A stretch of DNA of 5,079 nucleotides from a virus. Its lineage: Duplodnaviria; Heunggongvirae; Uroviricota; Caudoviricetes. Made by a program: the position numbers and the translations under genes. Below, one piece after another: positions 13 to 4,884 of this stretch. The stretch lies in the IMG/VR virus record IMGVR_UViG_2671180986_000013, one strand, 5' to 3'. The notes beneath the pieces are model-generated. The model saw only the letters and a program-made list of their open reading frames with translations. It did not search any database and had not been told where the DNA came from. Position 1 is the stretch's first letter, and each line of letters begins with the position of its first letter.

Positions 13-2511
13 TTAAGCGCAGCTATTTAGTGAATTAAGTAAATTAGTCAGTGACCTTGTAAAGTCTGTTAAACCTTCCTGTGAACCATCGAACATTAAG
101 GCCAGATTATTATTCCATGAATTACTTAAGCGGCCTAACTGCGTCTGAGTAGAGTTAATAATCTTTTCCCATCCACCAGCTTTATCAATCATCCTTCCCA
201 TTTCAGCGGATACTTTAGGAAGAACATCTTTAGAAAGAACCTTACCGTCTTTCATGGCCTTGTCTAATTCTTCCGTAGTCATCCCAAGACTTCTGGCAAA
301 TAACTGAAAAGCACCTGCCATTCTGTCACCTAATTGACCGCGTAGCTCTTCAGCCTGAATCTTTCCTTTAGATGCCATCTGCTCGAAAGCTTTTAAAATC
401 CCGTTAATTTCATCGGTGCTTAGCCCCATTAATCTGGATGTACCAATCACATTAGAAAATAAGGATTCTTTCTGGTCTGCATTCATATCACCAGCACCAG
501 CGGAAAACTTAGCAAAACTGCTTAATGTTTCAATCTGGTCTACACCACTACTATCAGCAAGATTCTTAACAAATTCTGTAGCTCGTTTAGCACCTTCATC
601 ACCTAAAACGAATTGTGCCGCTCGTTGTGATGCTTCTTTTTTCAGACCAACCTCCATAATCCGCCTGTAAGCTTCTAAGGCTGTCTGAAAACTATAAATG
701 GCTGTACCTGCTTTGATTGCACTCGTAGCTAATACATCCAGACTATTTGAAGCATTTTCACTGTGATTATTTTTGCTGGTGGTCTTGTTAAACTTAGAAA
801 GTGTTTCACGAAGAGACTGATTTAACTTTGCTAACTCACGATTAAAAGTTTCGTTTCCAAGTGTCTTGGATTTACTGCTTAAGCTGTAATACTGGCTTTT
901 AAAATACTTCTCAAGCATAGGATTAAAGTCACGAAGCTTGCTCATATTCGCTGAGTAAGCTGCTGTGATTGCTCTGCTTCCGCTAATTCGTGGCTGTCTT
1001 GGTTGTCTAAGTGGCTTTAAAGTATCCTCAATTTCAGTTTTAATCTTAAACGCTCTAGTGTTTTTAAGACGCTGCTCAATCTTGGAAACAGTTTTATCGA
1101 CATTTCTTTCCATTAGTTTGAGAGAATCATTTAAAGGCGTAGGATTAACTCTAAACGACTTATTCAATCGCTTCTCAATTCGTGATGCTACCTGCATCGT
1201 TTGTTTCTCGGCTTTTTCCAAGCCTTTTAAAACTTTCTGAGAGTTAAAACTTNNNNNNNNNNNNNNNNNNNNNNNNNNNNNNNNNNNNNNNNNNNNNNNN
1301 NNNNNNNNNNNNNNNNNNNNNNNNNNNNNNNNNNNNNNNNNNNNNNNNNNNNNNNNNNNNNNNNNNNNNNNNNNNNNNNNNNNNNNNNNNNNNNNNNNNN
1401 NNNNNNNNNNNNNNNNNNNNNNNNNNNNNNNNNNNNNNNNNNNNNNNNNNNNNNNNNNNNNNNNNNNNNNNNNNNNNNNNNNNNNNNNNNNNNNNNNNNN
1501 NNNNNNNNNNNNNNNNNNNNNNNNNNNNNNNNNNNNNNNNNNNNNNNNNNNNNNNNNNNNNNNNNNNNNNNNNNNNNNNNNNNNNNNNNNNNNNNNNNNN
1601 NNNNNNNNNNNNNNNNNNNNNNNNNNNNNNNNNNNNNNNNNNNNNNNNNNNNNNNNNNNNNNNNNNNNNNNNNNNNNNNNNNNNNNNNNNNNNNNNNNNN
1701 NNNNNNNNNNNNNNNNNNNNNNNNNNNNNNNNNNNNNNNNNNNNNNNNNNNNNNNNNNNNNNNNNNNNNNNNNNNNNNNNNNNNNNNNNNNNNNNNNNNN
1801 NNNNNNNNNNNNNNNNNNNNNNNNNNNNNNNNNNNNNNNNNNNNNNNNNNNNNNNNNNNNNNNNNNNNNNNNNNNNNNNNNNNNNNNNNNNNNNNNNNNN
1901 NNNNNNNNNNNNNGTTCTTTTTTAAGCTTTTGCTTTAACTTATCCAGTTTACCGGAATAATGCTTAGTCAAATTAGCTTCAGCTAACTGAAGAATCTCTT
2001 CATCTGTTTTATCAGTCATCAGAATAAATTGACCAGAACCCCTTAATGCTTGTCTGACATCAATTAACCGGAACCCTTCAGGGATACTTTGAAGAACTTT
2101 AGGAACGTCTTCAATCGCTGTACCAAAACCATCATTAAAGTTTCCTTCATAATAGATAAACGGGTTTGACTTAATCTCGTAAGCAATATCATATTCTGAA
2201 GGTTTCGAGGTTTCTTCGAAGTTCTTAACAGCATCGTAAGCGACATCAAGTCTAAGACGCTGTGATTTTAAAGCTGGGTAATATTCACGCTCAAGCTCAA
2301 ATAGTGCTTCAGTTTTGCAGATATCAGGCATTTCTTGAGGCTCAGGAGACACAAAGGAAATTACCTTTGGTGACATCTTTAGCTCTTGCTCAAGCTCAAT
2401 GCGCTTGTCATGCTCTTGACGCTGAATAGTATGTAGCGGATGTTCACCCTGTGGTGACCAGTCTCCGAAGCTATCAACCTTTTTACCGTTAATATATAAA
2501 TCGTTTGTCAT
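13..2511 (-). CDS. putative phage tail tape-measure-domain protein (832 codons as represented; interior masked by N)
   Basis: Longest ORF in the window. ATG at 2511..2509 is preceded by GAGGA (plus 2519..2523) with a 7-nt spacer; stop TAA at 15..13. The C-terminal region (about residues 690-790: ...GILKAFEQMASKGKIQAEELRGQLGDRMAGAFQLFARSLGMTTEELDKAMKDGKVLSKDVL...) matches, from memory, the conserved tape-measure domain pattern of phage TMPs; upstream of it are K/E/Q-rich coiled-coil-like stretches. At both edges of the N run only this frame is open, and the two edges are in the same phase for a 661-nt gap, so a single ORF is plausible but a gene boundary inside the gap cannot be excluded. Confidence 0.55.
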   Translation of the reverse strand: MTNDLYINGKKVDSFGDWSPQGEHPLHTIQRQEHDKRIELEQELKMSPKVISFVSPEPQEMPDICKTEALFELEREYYPALKSQRLRLDVAYDAVKNFEETSKPSEYDIAYEIKSNPFIYYEGNFNDGFGTAIEDVPKVLQSIPEGFRLIDVRQALRGSGQFILMTDKTDEEILQLAEANLTKHYSGKLDKLKQKLKKEXXXXXXXXXXXXXXXXXXXXXXXXXXXXXXXXXXXXXXXXXXXXXXXXXXXXXXXXXXXXXXXXXXXXXXXXXXXXXXXXXXXXXXXXXXXXXXXXXXXXXXXXXXXXXXXXXXXXXXXXXXXXXXXXXXXXXXXXXXXXXXXXXXXXXXXXXXXXXXXXXXXXXXXXXXXXXXXXXXXXXXXXXXXXXXXXXXXXXXXXXXXXXXXXXXXXXXXXXXXXXSFNSQKVLKGLEKAEKQTMQVASRIEKRLNKSFRVNPTPLNDSLKLMERNVDKTVSKIEQRLKNTRAFKIKTEIEDTLKPLRQPRQPRISGSRAITAAYSANMSKLRDFNPMLEKYFKSQYYSLSSKSKTLGNETFNRELAKLNQSLRETLSKFNKTTSKNNHSENASNSLDVLATSAIKAGTAIYSFQTALEAYRRIMEVGLKKEASQRAAQFVLGDEGAKRATEFVKNLADSSGVDQIETLSSFAKFSAGAGDMNADQKESLFSNVIGTSRLMGLSTDEINGILKAFEQMASKGKIQAEELRGQLGDRMAGAFQLFARSLGMTTEELDKAMKDGKVLSKDVLPKVSAEMGRMIDKAGGWEKIINSTQTQLGRLSNSWNNNLALMFDGSQEGLTDFTRSLTNLLNSLNSCA
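1253..1913. other. run of 661 N (masked or unresolved sequence) inside the large ORF
   Basis: Directly visible. Length is not a multiple of 3, but codon phase is preserved across it in the only open frame, which suggests exact-length masking rather than an arbitrary assembly gap. Confidence 0.99.
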
Positions 2512-2719: not shown

Positions 2720-2749
2720 TTTTCCTGAAACTTCGTTAACGTTATAAGC
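2651..2749. repeat. perfect 40-bp inverted repeat (palindrome) with 19-nt spacer
   Basis: 2651..2690 gcttataacgttaacgaagtttcaggaaaactttctttaa is the exact reverse complement of 2710..2749; loop 2691..2709. The left arm and loop belong to repeat A; the right arm is unique to this copy and is followed directly by 11 N. Confidence 0.9.
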
Positions 2750-2760
2750 NNNNNNNNNNN
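2750..2760. other. run of 11 N abutting the palindrome
   Basis: Directly visible; a single ambiguous base also occurs at 3200 immediately before A copy 2. Confidence 0.99.
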
Positions 2761-2762
2761 GC

Positions 2763-2936
2763 TTAAAAAAAGAACAAATGGTAGTGTCCGCTATTGCCAG
2801 TACACCTCAATGGACCTTTATTTACTTCGTGTGATTCCCGCCAAGCTCTATCAAAAGATTCACGCAAAGTTAATTCGTGAATATCAAGTGCACTTGGTCT
2901 GTGTTCGATAAGCATTTCATGTTCATTTCTAATCAT
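2763..2936 (-). CDS. hypothetical small protein (57 aa)
   Basis: Minus-strand ORF MIRNEHEMLIEHRPSALDIHELTLRESFDRAWRESHEVNKGPLRCTGNSGHYHLFFF, hand-translated (below the ORF-track size cut-off). ATG at 2936..2934 is preceded by AAGGGGTGA with a 5-nt spacer; stop TAA at 2765..2763. A TATAAAT motif sits about 32 nt upstream on the minus strand (plus 2968..2974). No recognisable domain. Confidence 0.35.
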   Translation of the reverse strand: MIRNEHEMLIEHRPSALDIHELTLRESFDRAWRESHEVNKGPLRCTGNSGHYHLFFF

Positions 2937-3040
2937 TCGTTCACCCCTTAGTTTATTTGTTATTTCAATTTATAGAAGCACACTCAGCAATCAGAGGTGA
3001 AGAGTCTGACTGAACAAGAACCTGCCAAGTGTGCTTTTAA

Positions 3041-3075
3041 AAACTGAAAAAGCCCTAAACATTTCTGTGAAGGGC
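3041..3075 (-). terminator. candidate rho-independent terminator (minus-strand sense)
   Basis: Stem gccct (3052..3056) pairs with agggc (3071..3075) around a 14-nt loop aaacatttctgtga; the minus-strand RNA continues UUUUUCAGUUUUU (plus 3041..3051). The loop is nearly identical to the hairpin loop inside repeat A. Confidence 0.5.
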
Positions 3076-3077
3076 AA

Positions 3078-3199
3078 AGGATTCAATAATGAATGAACAA
3101 GAGTACTTTTTGAGATAGCCTCTCAGACTAACCTGAAAGGCCATGACGAAAAGCATTGCACCTTTCCAACTCAGAATATCCATCCATCGGATTATTGAA
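3078..3199. repeat. repeat B, copy 1 (about 122 bp)
   Basis: Aligns with 3351..3471 with one short indel (gagtac vs agac) and three substitutions (t/c at 3129 vs 3400; cat vs tag at 3141..3143 vs 3412..3414). Ends are a 9-bp inverted pair, ttcaataat (3082..3090) and attattgaa (3191..3199). Confidence 0.9.
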
Positions 3200-3200
3200 N

Positions 3201-3321
3201 TGCTCTATTAAGAAAAGCCCTAAACATAATCTGTGAAGGGCTTTGGAGGTTTGCTTATAACGTTAACGAAGTTTCAGGAAAACTTTCTTTAAAAGCTCTG
3301 TTTAAAAACTCTTAAAGAAAG
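3201..3321. repeat. direct repeat A, copy 2 (121 bp, identical to 2599..2719)
   Basis: 121/121 identity with copy 1; contains the same left palindrome arm and loop but only the first 10 nt of the right arm (3312..3321). Confidence 0.95.
3207..3244 (-). terminator. candidate rho-independent terminator (minus-strand sense) inside A copy 2
   Basis: Same hairpin as in A copy 1 (stem 3214..3221 / 3237..3244, 15-nt loop), followed on the minus strand by UUUUCUU. Confidence 0.4.
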
Positions 3322-3341
3322 CCCTAACTCATGATTAGGGC
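3312..3341 (-). terminator. candidate rho-independent terminator (minus-strand sense)
   Basis: Stem gccctaa (3321..3327) pairs with ttagggc (3335..3341) around a 7-nt loop ctcatga; the minus-strand RNA continues UUUCUUUAAG (plus 3312..3320). Confidence 0.5.
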
Positions 3342-3350
3342 AAAGCTGTA

Positions 3351-3471
3351 AAGGATTCAATAATGAATGAACAAAGACTTTTTGAGATAGCCTCTCAGAC
3401 CAACCTGAAAGGCTAGGACGAAAAGCATTGCACCTTTCCAACTCAGAATATCCATCCATCGGATTATTGAA
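3351..3471. repeat. repeat B, copy 2 (about 121 bp)
   Basis: See B copy 1; about 95% identical, with the same 9-bp terminal inverted pair (3355..3363 and 3462..3470). Confidence 0.9.
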
Positions 3472-3497
3472 AGAAAAAATAAGAGAGAATTGCTCTC
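3471..3497 (-). terminator. small hairpin plus U-tract in the first ~30 nt of the predicted transcript (possible attenuator)
   Basis: Minus-strand sequence GGGGAGAGCAAUUCUCUCUUAUUUUUUCUUUC: stem GAGAG/CUCUC (plus 3483..3497) with a 5-nt loop, followed by UUAUUUUUU. The stem is only 5 bp, so support is weak. Confidence 0.3.
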
Positions 3498-3510
3498 CCC
3501 CATATATACA

Positions 3511-3539
3511 ATTATGTCATGCTCAAGGTTGTTTGTCAA
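3511..3539 (-). promoter_or_regulatory. near-consensus sigma70-type promoter (TTGACA, 17-nt spacer, extended -10 TGaCATAAT)
   Basis: Minus strand reads TTGACA (plus 3534..3539), a 17-nt spacer AACAACCTTGAGCATGA, then CATAAT (plus 3511..3516) with TG two bases upstream of the -10; an AT-rich stretch lies upstream of the -35. Predicted start near plus 3503, transcribing toward lower coordinates into the repeats. Confidence 0.55.
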
Positions 3540-3563
3540 CAGCTTTTAACAGATTGGTAACAT

Positions 3564-3629
3564 TTATACTTTAATAGATGCACCTGCAATCATACCAATC
3601 AATACAAAACAGATAATCACCAATTCCAT
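3564..3629 (-). CDS. 21-aa hydrophobic peptide (predicted single transmembrane helix)
   Basis: Hand-translated minus-strand ORF MELVIICFVLIGMIAGASIKV with stop TAA at 3566..3564. Its ATG (3629..3627) shares one base with the TAA stop of the upstream gene (TAATG) and is preceded by AGGTGG with a 7-nt spacer. Too short for the ORF track; coding status is not proven. Confidence 0.4.
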   Translation of the reverse strand: MELVIICFVLIGMIAGASIKV

Positions 3630-3952
3630 TAATGCACCACCTTCGAATCCGTCACCAGAATATTATCGCTATACAAAATTGCTATAGCCGCCTTGAGATA
3701 TTTTTCAGGGCTAACGCTGTATTTGTTCGTTTCTTCGATAATAAGACGCTTCATGTTTGAGTCGGTAACAGGAAACATAAAACGCGGTTCACCAGTTTCA
3801 ATTTCCTGAATAAAGTCTTCAATTTCTTCTGAGTTTTCAGCCATTAGCTTTAGTAATTTATCAAGGTCAATTGATACACCGGAATCAGCGAAAGCCTGCA
3901 CCATCATAGCAGTGTCGCTATCAATGAAAATCTGTAATTCATATTCGTTCAT
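3629..3952 (-). CDS. hypothetical acidic protein (107 aa)
   Basis: ORF-track entry 3629..3985 trimmed to ATG at 3952..3950, which has AAGGAG 9 nt upstream; the track start is a TTG inside a GAGGAGG motif. Product MNEYELQIFIDSDTAMMVQAFADSGVSIDLDKLLKLMAENSEEIEDFIQEIETGEPRF... has roughly 21 acidic versus 10 basic residues. No recognisable domain. Confidence 0.65.
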   Translation of the reverse strand: MNEYELQIFIDSDTAMMVQAFADSGVSIDLDKLLKLMAENSEEIEDFIQEIETGEPRFMFPVTDSNMKRLIIEETNKYSVSPEKYLKAAIAILYSDNILVTDSKVVH

Positions 3953-4130
3953 TTTTAAAATCTCCTTTTTACCAGACCTCCTCAATCGCTCTGTAACGAG
4001 CTAAACAGTCTTTTTCAGGGGTAGCCTGTACAGTGGTATTACCCACCCTAAAATAAGATAGTTTTTTGCGTTAGAATGCGATTGAGAGCGTCTGATAAGC
4101 TGTTTTTCTAATTTCTCTTAAAGTCTCGGA

Positions 4131-4331
4131 CTACCAATAACCTAATTCCGCTTTATTTCGTTCAAACCATTCCGCTGTAACTGCTGTCTTTAGTGTTGCG
4201 TTTGGGCTGGTGGCATGAATGAAGATATCTTTTGGATTGCAAGCATCACCGAAACCACCTTCTTTGATGAGCAGGTCTGATACATGCTTAATCATTTTAT
4301 CTGTCAAATATTCGAATTTAATACATAACAT
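4131..4331 (-). CDS. hypothetical protein (66 aa)
   Basis: ORF-track entry 4131..4364 trimmed to ATG at 4331..4329 (MLCIKFEYLTDKMIKHVSDLLIKEGGFGDACNPKDIFIHATSPNATLKTAVTAEWFERNKAELGYW). GGAG lies 5 nt upstream and the ATG overlaps the HNH gene stop (TAATG). Stop TAG at 4133..4131. Confidence 0.55.
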   Translation of the reverse strand: MLCIKFEYLTDKMIKHVSDLLIKEGGFGDACNPKDIFIHATSPNATLKTAVTAEWFERNKAELGYW

Positions 4332-4603
4332 TAAATCTCCAGGAGTAAATTGTTTGGGTGGCAATTTCTTTTATTACCATCCCTGAAGATAATCTTTTTA
4401 GTTGCCTGAACTTCATGATGCAAAAACCAGATGACATACTTCAGATAATAATCACGAGTGCCATAACGAATCATTGGATTACCGTAAGCATCATCTCTTG
4501 TCTTAACCTCTCCACCATCAATCCATTCAAGCATTCCTGTCTCATAATTAATCATGAAGTAAGTTGCAAAGAACCGTTTAATATCATCTCGCCATTGCTT
4601 CAT
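4331..4603 (-). CDS. small HNH-family endonuclease (HNH_3-like), 90 aa
   Basis: ATG at 4603..4601 preceded by AGGAGG with a 7-nt spacer. The C-terminal half YLKYVIWFLHHEVQATKKIIFRDGNKRNCHPNNL resembles the HNH_3 signature (..vHrlva..f.....vnH.DGNK.NN...NL), but Arg replaces the usual first His before DGNK and the protein ends straight after NL. Confidence 0.55.
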   Translation of the reverse strand: MKQWRDDIKRFFATYFMINYETGMLEWIDGGEVKTRDDAYGNPMIRYGTRDYYLKYVIWFLHHEVQATKKIIFRDGNKRNCHPNNLLLEI

Positions 4604-4605
4604 AA

Positions 4606-4884
4606 TCAGACCTCCTGAGACAGTTTGTGAATTTTGATACTTAGTAACCTTGCTAAATCCAGTCCAAAAGCATTTAAGGATTTCAGACTATCAAGGTCAT
4701 CTTGCTTAATCCTGATATGGTGTCTTGCAGCCTCTAAGCGACTATTAAGCAAATCCTGTTCGTTAATATCACGGTTAATTGCAAGCTTCATCACTGCTGA
4801 GTGTGGCAGACCTGTAATGTTTTTGATTCGGTTCAGTTCATCAAAGGCTGTCTTTGTAACTCTGGTTAATGTGTGTTTATTCAT
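4606..4884 (-). CDS. putative ribbon-helix-helix (CopG/Arc-like) DNA-binding protein, 92 aa
   Basis: ATG at 4884..4882 preceded by GAGGA with a 7-nt spacer. The N-terminus HTLTRVTKTAFDELNRIKNITGLPHSAVMKLAINR fits a strand / helix / loop / helix RHH pattern. Stop TGA at 4608..4606, 2 nt before the HNH start and overlapping its RBS. Confidence 0.4.
   Translation of the reverse strand: MNKHTLTRVTKTAFDELNRIKNITGLPHSAVMKLAINRDINEQDLLNSRLEAARHHIRIKQDDLDSLKSLNAFGLDLARLLSIKIHKLSQEV

Follow-up and report, generated by a model that had tools for sequence, protein, structure and literature searches.

We report here that two overlapping reading frames in a 5,079-nt stretch of DNA (the window; virus record IMGVR_UViG_2671180986_000013), one coding for an acidic protein of 107 amino acids (aa) and the other, 21 codons long, for a hydrophobic micropeptide, are both genuine genes, which are coupled and subject to purifying selection. 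Judging from a structural model, the 107-aa protein very likely has a single-chain tandem ribbon-helix-helix (RHH) fold. As to the function of the pair, we tentatively infer that it produces a regulator of promoters sharing a common operator, together with a co-translated effector located in the inner membrane.

Organization of the gene pair and translational coupling

All coordinates are those of the whole window, in which both genes of the pair, as well as all genes of the right half, are encoded by the minus strand. A preliminary description of this DNA, made from the sequence alone, reported a 107-codon open reading frame (ORF) whose stop overlaps the start of a 21-codon ORF, and reading of the minus strand confirmed this arrangement, the elements of which are as follows.

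3632-3952, minus strand: gene for the 107-aa acidic protein, with a predicted single-chain tandem RHH fold; start ATG 3952-3950, stop TAA 3631-3629
3962-3967, minus strand: Shine-Dalgarno sequence AAGGAG of the 107-aa gene, 9 nt 5' of its ATG
3564-3629, minus strand: 21-codon micropeptide gene, product MELVIICFVLIGMIAGASIKV; start ATG 3629-3627, stop TAA 3566-3564
3627-3631, minus strand: TAATG stop/start overlap, with one base common to the 107-aa and peptide genes
3637-3643, minus strand: Shine-Dalgarno-like AAGGTGG of the peptide gene, 7 nt 5' of its ATG, within the last codons of the 107-aa gene

The larger product contains 21 acidic (D+E) and 9 basic (K+R) residues, which agrees with the approximately twofold excess given in the preliminary description, and the peptide ORF does possess, as was also claimed there, a Shine-Dalgarno sequence of its own (AAGGTGG at 3643-3637).

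For the comparative analysis, 84 related loci were collected from genomes, metagenomes and viral-contig collections, and complete Escherichia coli and Shigella chromosomes were added to them. A coupled short hydrophobic ORF was present in each of the 83 loci which are complete in this region, always as the last gene before the promoter described below. In 81 of them it consists of 21, 22 or 25 codons and overlaps the stop codon of the upstream gene as TAATG; in the remaining two (L066 and L068) an extra 74-aa gene is inserted, and a 25-aa peptide ORF is TAATG-coupled to that gene. Of 85 loci scored for the overlap, 80 gave an offset of +2 and four (L073-L076) one of -3, these four having TAATG as well; L066 has ATGA. 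One of the purine-rich sequences AAGGTGG, GTGAGGG or GTGAGGT is present in every allele, despite the differing C-termini encoded there (KVVH, VRVH, SEVM).

The additional 74-aa gene (MKVQID...) was found between the RHH and peptide genes in two metagenomic alleles, at positions 1869-2170 of L066 and 9499-9800 of L068. Both of its junctions are TAATG in L068; in L066 the junction with the RHH gene is ATGA and that with the peptide gene is TAATG.

Selection on the micropeptide and its conserved design

The micropeptides form a 21-aa class (MELVIICFVLIGMIAGASIKV) and a 25-aa class (M[GT]LI[IV][AL]WTxLGLFVGC..N.VNKN), with one hybrid (MELVIMWTLLGIAIAFAISMEK). Selection statistics were calculated by the pairwise Nei-Gojobori method over all pairs of unique alleles, without correction for phylogeny. 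Among the 45 distinct nucleotide sequences of the 25-aa class, the proportions of synonymous (pS) and nonsynonymous (pN) differences in the peptide frame were 0.51 and 0.15, giving a pN/pS ratio of 0.29, and the ratios in the two shifted frames were 1.11 and 1.38. No in-frame stop codon occurs in any of these 45 unique 25-codon alleles, and the other two forward frames contain stops in all 45. Constraint on the peptide is equally strong as that on the 107-aa gene, for which pN/pS is 0.35. The 21-aa class is nearly invariant in nucleotides (7 unique sequences, pS 0.08) and, taken alone, uninformative.

The design of the product is kept as well. A GxxxG motif is located in the middle of the helix in 32 of the 33 distinct peptides, the hybrid having G-xxx-A instead, and every one of the 33 has exactly one lysine or arginine, placed one or two positions from the C-terminus. 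For MELVIICFVLIGMIAGASIKV the grand average of hydropathicity (GRAVY) is 2.21 and the best 17-residue Kyte-Doolittle window is 2.81; across the variants GRAVY ranges from 1.0 to 2.6 and the best window from 2.1 to 2.8, with one hydrophobic window of transmembrane length. Because selection is frame-specific and this design is maintained across two unrelated-looking classes, the comparative data argue strongly that the 21-codon ORF, the translation of which was a premise of the preliminary description, yields a translated and functional product; the alternative is hard to square with the frame specificity. The suggestion made there that the peptide forms a single membrane helix is plausible in view of the one Kyte-Doolittle window of sufficient length. 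We therefore regard it as a putative single-pass inner-membrane protein, in which the conserved GxxxG suggests specific packing of helices.

Six short peptides, namely five variants of the coupled micropeptide and the product of a leader ORF discussed below, were looked up as exact sequences among about 15 billion catalogued predicted proteins, and none of them was retrieved; the RefSeq annotation of the island genomes checked does not contain the 21-25-codon ORF. Searches of the peptides against Pfam and NCBIfam revealed no small-protein or toxin family, a single match to PetG being judged due to chance. There was also no match for either peptide class when tblastn was run against 50,697 phage records, although searches with such short queries have little power.

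In E. coli E110019 (L001, 20560-20620), the 107-aa gene has gained one base within a T-run close to its end and so comes to be in frame with the peptide ORF. The predicted RHH protein is thereby joined to a transmembrane helix, and the fusion is labelled in RefSeq as a frameshifted pseudogene. This natural +1 insertion prompted consideration of a programmed -1 frameshift that would fuse the two ORFs; it was rejected, since there is no slippery heptamer and the -1 frame is open for 11 codons only.

Predicted fold of the 107-aa protein

The isoelectric point (pI) of the 107-aa protein is 4.25, and its charge is distributed unevenly, with an acidic to basic ratio of 15:2 in residues 1-56 and of 6:7 in residues 57-107, which are slightly basic. 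The family comprises 3132 clusters at 90% identity, all named hypothetical and derived from E. coli, Shigella, Salmonella and E. albertii; at 50% identity their number is only 18, in a set of 1.84 billion representatives. Members of a divergent subfamily, which share about 30% identity with the main one, come from E. coli, Shigella flexneri and Citrobacter. Profile searches of Pfam, PHROGs, PADLOC, NCBIfam and PDB gave nothing usable, with only chance hits in PDB, and a match to Casc1_C (E 0.014) was likewise judged to be accidental. Neither megablast of the region nor tblastn of the protein detected a match in the 50,697 phage records. Homology to a structural or housekeeping phage protein was looked for and none was found.

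A model of the protein was obtained with AlphaFold2 (AF2), from a shallow alignment of 71 sequences covering both subfamilies. It has a mean predicted local distance difference test score (pLDDT) of 78 and a predicted template modelling score (pTM) of 0.72, and consists of two beta-alpha-alpha units. According to DSSP, the first unit includes a strand (residues 6-10) and two helices (12-23 and 30-39), and is connected by a linker helix (41-50) to the second unit, which is formed by a strand (58-62) and helices 65-78 and 82-95. In the model the two strands make up one antiparallel ribbon lying on a four-helix pseudo-dimer, which superposes on solved members of the RHH superfamily. TraY was the top PDB match in Foldseek, and the top matches in BFVD were tandem RHH proteins of archaeal rod-shaped and filamentous viruses (TM-score up to 0.64), with weak E-values (0.013-0.18 over PDB and BFVD). 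We consider it very likely, on the basis of this model, that the protein has a single-chain tandem RHH fold, a fold of the DNA-binding type. The earlier statement that the protein has no recognisable domain thus holds at the level of sequence, where profile searches were negative, and does not hold at the level of the predicted fold, which is a tandem RHH like that of TraY, AvtR and DndE.

Conservation between the two subfamilies is concentrated in the first strand with the N-cap (MNxY[PE][LM]QI..D.[DE]T) and in the second repeat (VTD...KR.IIEE.N...SPE..LK). The acidic cluster of the main family corresponds to the linker between repeats (residues 39-56), with a mean net charge of -7 versus 0 in the divergent subfamily; summed over the entire protein, the main family has a net charge of about -9 and the divergent one of about -6.

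Promoters, operator-like repeats and leader RNA

Promoters and terminators were called by consensus scans. The strong promoter that had been proposed to follow the pair was recovered at 3539-3511, and the elements associated with it and with a second promoter of the same island are listed below.

3511-3539, minus strand: sigma-70-type promoter TTGACA-17-CATAAT with TG before the -10; 11 of 12 positions match; the best in the scanned region
3537-3562, minus strand: operator-like direct repeats TGTTA (3562-3558), TGTTA (3551-3547) and TGTTG (3541-3537), with spacing of 11 and 10 bp
8408-8423 and 8473-8488 of locus L087: TGTTA-N6-TGTTA copies at the upstream promoter
3320-3504, minus strand: structured leader RNA, from the strong promoter and ending before the tail genes

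The -35 element begins 25 nt after the peptide stop, and the promoter is conserved in nearly all loci. The repeats begin only 2 nt past the peptide stop and extend into the -35. The segment 3567-3508 is the most conserved stretch of the region, with column identity of 0.90-0.98 (74 unique loci) compared to 0.66-0.91 for 15-nt windows in the genes. In all 10 loci examined TGTTA-N6-TGTTA was found again at a syntenic position, about 100 bp before the first gene of the upstream operon, with a second near-consensus promoter directly downstream of it (in L087, TTGACA-17-TAATAT at 8431-8459). An inverted copy of TGTTA-N6-TGTTA is present just downstream of the upstream-operon promoter in every locus examined. 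The chance expectation of this motif is about 0.15 per 20 kb on both strands, by our estimate made with equal base frequencies.

Since the two promoters have the same -35, the same spacing and the same TGTATATAT(G/A)GG start region, they are paralogues. The island thus has two strong paralogous promoters with a common operator-like element, which suggests that one regulator could control both operons; one of the two promoters lies right next to the 107-aa gene. Both subfamilies of the 107-aa protein adjoin the same TGTTA repeats. The consensus scan revealed no sigma-70-like promoter directly before the pair (minus strand, 4130-3953), and no antisense promoter opposite the peptide gene (plus strand, near 3500-3700). 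One more TGTTA-type site lies in non-coding sequence, at a distance of about 1 kb upstream from the operon.

The leader RNA is composed of a 5' hairpin with a T-run (3503-3479), an invariant block GGAAAGGUGCAAUGCUUUUCG (3447-3418), a hairpin of 11-13 bp (3415-3388) and a terminator (3341-3321). The sequence of the hairpin at 3415-3388 varies among alleles with pairing kept, i.e. it covaries. No family was assigned to the leader in a scan of Rfam, the only matches being spurious ones of microRNA models on an inverted repeat at 2652-2748. The leader may gate read-through into the tape-measure operon, and could be compared in this respect with SviR, a small RNA of the PLEs, elements similar to phage-inducible chromosomal islands. 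An ORF within it (MLFVLAFQ..., 3429-3358) was considered as a second micropeptide and rejected, because it has 4-12 codons in other loci and the RNA hairpins covary.

The chromosomal island carrying the pair

The phage genome assumed in the preliminary description as the setting of the pair proved to be a chromosomal island of E. coli and Shigella. Chromosomes of Shigella sonnei encode the exact 107-aa protein in an island riddled with insertion sequences (IS), which is situated between yciI and tonB. At least two integration sites are used, tonB-yciI (also in E. coli E166) and the interior of mdtG (E110019). The island is integrative and about 10-11 kb long (e.g. L002 6188-16032; L087 4789-20263). 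Its upstream operon contains, in the order of transcription, genes for a 184-185-aa protein, an RHH-like protein of about 93 aa, optional HNH 90-aa and 66-aa proteins, the 107-aa protein and the peptide. The promoter and the leader are followed by genes for a 234-236-aa protein, a 69-aa protein, a tape-measure protein (Pfam TMP_3) and a Dit-like tail protein, and at the end of the island there is a convergent gene for a serine recombinase, which is large, or small in some cases. Synteny from the 107-aa gene to the serine recombinase gene was observed in dozens of loci, with each gene occurring as several very divergent alleles which are freely reassorted. A 448-nt module consisting of the 107-aa gene, the peptide gene and the promoter was present in 463 of 5426 complete E. 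coli genomes (8.5%), always in the chromosome, in up to three copies per genome and with 69-99% identity.

The tail genes point to a particular group of phages. In tblastn comparisons to Ounavirinae (FelixO1-like myoviruses), the Dit-like protein showed about 70% and the tape-measure protein about 29% identity, and in members of this subfamily, e.g. phage mistaenkt, the homologues of both lie side by side, with two genes for tape-measure chaperones in front of them. The island hence combines, as PLE-like satellites do, an integrase with a partial tail module (chaperone, tape-measure protein, hub) related to that of a virulent myovirus, and it looks like a satellite of FelixO1-like phages. PADLOC matched no defence model to the proteins of the island, and no lysis genes were found in it. 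We found no description of this enterobacterial island in the open-access papers and preprints searched, which does not prove that it is undescribed.

Two further products of the upstream operon, encoded within 4331-4884 (minus strand), may be mentioned. A basic 92-aa protein (4606-4884; pI 9.8) carries at its N-terminus an RHH motif of canonical appearance and is matched, below threshold, by DndE and by the P27 small terminase; its single-sequence AF2 prediction consists of two long helices (pTM 0.46, the other four models being poor), and no weight was placed on it. A truncated 90-aa HNH_3 endonuclease is likewise encoded upstream of the pair and occurs in only about a third of the loci. The proximity of an HNH protein to a small-terminase-like protein is reminiscent of cos-packaging modules.

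Proposed function of the pair and alternative explanations

In the explanation which we tentatively favour, the pair would form the invariant final part of the upstream operon, regulatory in character, of an enterobacterial island resembling a satellite. The tandem RHH protein would be a DNA-binding regulator, with the TGTTA repeats at one or both promoters as its candidate targets, and it would gate production of the leader RNA and expression of the downstream tail module, i.e. two small genes in the position of chaperones, the tape-measure gene and the Dit-like hub gene. Ribosomes terminating at the end of the 107-aa gene would re-initiate at TAATG, aided by the internal Shine-Dalgarno sequence, and in this way the peptide of 21-25 residues would be made in a fixed proportion to the regulator. 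The peptide would then insert into the inner membrane as a single-pass protein, its lone lysine or arginine probably being cytoplasmic, and act by GxxxG-mediated association of helices, either with itself or with a membrane protein of phage or host. Its likeliest effect would be on the timing of lysis, the integrity of the membrane or the entry of DNA when the cell is infected by FelixO1-like phages (Ounavirinae), the source of the tail genes. A more far-reaching version, which seems to us rather unlikely, would make the pair a switch-and-effector core of undescribed PLE-like satellites, or of tail-interfering defence islands, directed against FelixO1-like phages. In that version the acidic RHH protein would sense infection and gate the two promoters and the tape-measure/hub module, and the GxxxG micropeptide would be a new phage-directed membrane effector, influencing lysis timing, abortive infection or DNA entry.

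Several observations weigh against the regulator-and-effector explanation. The fold is derived from a single AF2 model with a shallow alignment (the effective number of sequences in hhalign, Neff, was about 2.2 for the half-alignments) and non-significant Foldseek E-values, and no RHH family of Pfam, NCBIfam or PHROG matches the protein. Because the comparison of its N-terminal and C-terminal halves with hhalign was not significant (E 0.2-0.7), it is the structure that argues for an internal duplication. The strong acidity is unusual for a DNA binder, and the residues of the ribbon predicted to face DNA (E/P5, Q7, F/M9, R57, M59, P61 and T63) are atypical as base readers of RHH proteins. The TGTTA repeats could equally well, or better, be bound by the basic 92-aa protein of the same operon. 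No association was found between the class of the peptide and the alleles of other island genes, so no partner is indicated. The satellite nature of the island is deduced from gene content, and production of the peptide, its membrane insertion and its activity are deduced from sequence.

Among the other explanations, a toxin-antitoxin-like or abortive module appears unlikely. The peptide would be in this case a membrane-depolarising toxin of the type I kind, and the acidic RHH protein its antidote and/or autoregulator. In size and hydrophobicity the peptide does resemble toxins such as Ibs, ShoB and TisB, being a small hydrophobic membrane peptide, and the overlapping genes, with that of the acidic RHH protein first, follow the antitoxin-first layout of type II systems. 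The pair is also intact in S. sonnei despite the destruction of the tape-measure gene by IS elements, a weak argument since the other four genes of the upstream operon are intact too. However, no known type II toxin is a transmembrane peptide of 21-25 aa, no folded toxin of a known superfamily is present, and there is no obvious way in which a soluble acidic protein could neutralise such a peptide. The consensus scans detected neither an autoregulated promoter of its own before the pair, where the spacer is formed by a 130-nt palindrome, nor the promoter of an antisense RNA antitoxin opposite the peptide gene. The peptide shows no hidden Markov model (HMM) similarity to toxin families, neither partner was lost in the two loci where the 74-aa gene separates them, and in E110019, where the frameshift fuses the two ORFs, the locus has not evidently been lost. 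We find somewhat less plausible still that the 107-aa protein is a TraY-like DNA-processing factor, bending or marking a site for recombination directionality, replication or packaging, and that the peptide is an unrelated membrane protein. TraY is the best structural match; the island has a large serine recombinase, an enzyme type that needs a directionality factor; some upstream alleles carry a 310-aa helix-turn-helix protein, guessed from its sequence to be a possible replication initiator; and there are an HNH endonuclease gene two genes upstream and the TGTTA-type site in non-coding DNA about 1 kb upstream. On the other hand, strong conservation of candidate sites is confined to the promoters, the recombinase gene is about 5 kb away from the 107-aa gene, and acidity argues against this kind of DNA binding as it does against that by a regulator.

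A separate problem is the idea, put forward as speculation in the preliminary description, that the acidic protein is a DNA mimic or another factor of host takeover or anti-defence. In this case it would bind proteins and not DNA, and the RHH-like fold would be a mere scaffold. None of our results points in this direction, and we regard it as improbable. It is true that overall acidity is a trait of the whole family, characteristic of both subfamilies, and that the family is narrow and fast-evolving, as its numbers of clusters at 90% and 50% identity indicate and as would be expected of proteins engaged in an arms race. Yet the conserved, surface-wide acidic array on a mimic fold, known from Ocr and ArdA, was not found in the aligned sequences and the predicted fold. 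The acidic cluster of the linker is not positionally conserved (-7 versus 0), the predicted fold matches DNA binders and not known DNA mimics, and conservation is strongest in the first strand and the second repeat, not on an acidic surface. Moreover, no PADLOC or anti-defence family was matched, and host takeover is less apt for a resident chromosomal island than for an invading phage. It is highly improbable, finally, that the 21-codon ORF is non-functional and that its conservation reflects a constraint on DNA or RNA beside the promoter, or merely the need for a ribosome to travel up to the operator. This would agree with its tiny size, with its lack of annotation in RefSeq, with the absence of the looked-up variants from the protein catalogue and with the near invariance of the 21-aa class. 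Against it stand the frame-specific excess of pS over pN in the 25-aa class, the strictly kept length and hydrophobicity, and the preservation of the transmembrane helix, of GxxxG (small-xxx-small in the hybrid) and of the terminal lysine or arginine in both classes and the hybrid. The peptide ORF also persists when its upstream partner changes.

Relation to known systems

The closest structural relative, TraY of the F plasmid (PDB 9f0x chain E), is an accessory protein of the relaxosome; it has 8% identity to the 107-aa protein and no relationship to it at the profile level, and there is no relaxase or oriT context around the 107-aa gene. TraY is basic, in contrast to the protein studied here with its pI of 4.25. 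AvtR and the tandem RHH regulators of archaeal rudi- and lipothrixviruses, as well as the engineered single-chain Arc, lack sequence similarity to the 107-aa protein, and the viral ones belong to another domain of life. Single-chain tandem RHH proteins of the AvtR type are documented DNA binders, whereas the 107-aa protein is highly acidic and its DNA binding is predicted. RHH antitoxins of type II systems (ParD, MazE, TacA, VapB) are homodimers with a toxin-binding tail and are paired with a folded toxin; the 107-aa protein is a tandem single chain, according to the prediction, and is paired with a transmembrane peptide of 21-25 aa.

In toxins such as Ibs, ShoB, TisB and Ldr, about 19-35 aa form one hydrophobic helix, whose end is polar or charged. 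The micropeptide is like them in having a single hydrophobic helix with a charged end, and unlike them in showing no HMM similarity and in having its translation coupled to an upstream ORF instead of being controlled by antisense RNA. With holins, antiholins and LidI-like proteins it has a transmembrane helix in common, and neither their size (about 60 aa or more) nor their linkage to endolysin or spanin genes was found. The closest functional precedent is LidI of the Vibrio cholerae PLE, a small and originally unannotated transmembrane protein kept in all PLEs, which collapses lysis inhibition and lowers the phage yield (PMC7182436). LidI, which belongs to a satellite that parasitises a virulent myovirus, has 66 or 121 aa and an experimentally shown function, in contrast to the 21-25-aa peptide, the role of which is proposed from sequence; homology between the two is not to be expected.

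PLEs have a chaperone (TAC), a tape-measure protein (TMP) and a baseplate-hub protein (BhuB) of their own, which are 20%, 20% and 41% identical to their counterparts in the virulent helper phage ICP1, and chimeric tails are built (PMC12987554). The island described here resembles them in having a serine recombinase and a partial tail module similar to that of a virulent myovirus (tape-measure protein 29% and hub-like protein 70% identical to those of Ounavirinae). It differs in the host family, in the putative helper and in its smaller size (about 10-11 kb), and it is known from its genes alone. According to a preprint of December 2025, tape-measure genes were otherwise unknown in satellites (PMC12822802).

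The RHH fold is known, as are small transmembrane proteins of mobile elements, and no new category is therefore introduced here. What appear to be undescribed are the family of the 107-aa protein, the micropeptide family, the invariant pairing of the two beside an operator-bearing promoter, and the island with a tape-measure protein and hub of its own. A micropeptide gene validated by comparison, which Shigella sonnei and 8.5% of the complete E. coli genomes carry, has been missed by all annotations examined, and an orphan hypothetical family of more than 3000 clusters gains a predicted fold and a candidate DNA target. Satellites with chimeric tails and their own tape-measure protein were first reported only in 2025-2026, for Vibrio PLEs and mycobacterial EPIPs. 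If our explanation is true, the island would be their enterobacterial counterpart, for which E. coli genetics and helper candidates (Felixounavirus, Suspvirus and Mooglevirus, phages of therapy and biocontrol) are at hand, making regulation and anti-phage effects testable.

Other features of the island and of the window

The spacer upstream of the pair is occupied by a large palindrome.

3970-4098, minus strand: imperfect palindrome of about 130 nt (AGACGCTCTCAATCGC ... GCGATTGAGGAGGTCT), RNAfold -51.6 kcal/mol, between the 66-aa and 107-aa genes

A second copy adjoins the upstream promoter (L087 8226-8340). The palindrome may serve in RNA processing or as an insulator, may be a site of recombination, or may be a repeat similar to miniature inverted-repeat transposable elements.

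The window itself is a patchwork with masked stretches. An apparent ORF of 832 aa to the left of the pair (13-2511, minus strand) was rejected as an artefact, since a run of N (1254-1913) joins three genes which are separate in S. sonnei CP061367, namely one for 236 aa, with its start at 2511, one for 69 aa, and the tape-measure gene, represented by the part that codes for its N-terminal 425 aa; in CP061367 the tape-measure gene is interrupted by IS elements. There is also a direct duplication, 2589-2719 being the same as 3192-3322, which flanks an insert (2720-3191). The insert includes an IS end (2761-2810), with the remainder masked as N, and listed in it are a truncated second allele of the 234/236-aa gene (57-aa ORF, 2763-2936), a second copy of the leader block (3076-3199, 96% identical) and the near-perfect inverted repeat 2652-2748. 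The duplication with its insert looks like an IS-mediated rearrangement between two copies of the island, or a scaffolding artefact.

In most loci, a 62-aa ORF with a hydrophobic stretch (L087 8043-8230, minus strand) is divergent from the upstream promoter, and it may encode a second small membrane protein of the island.

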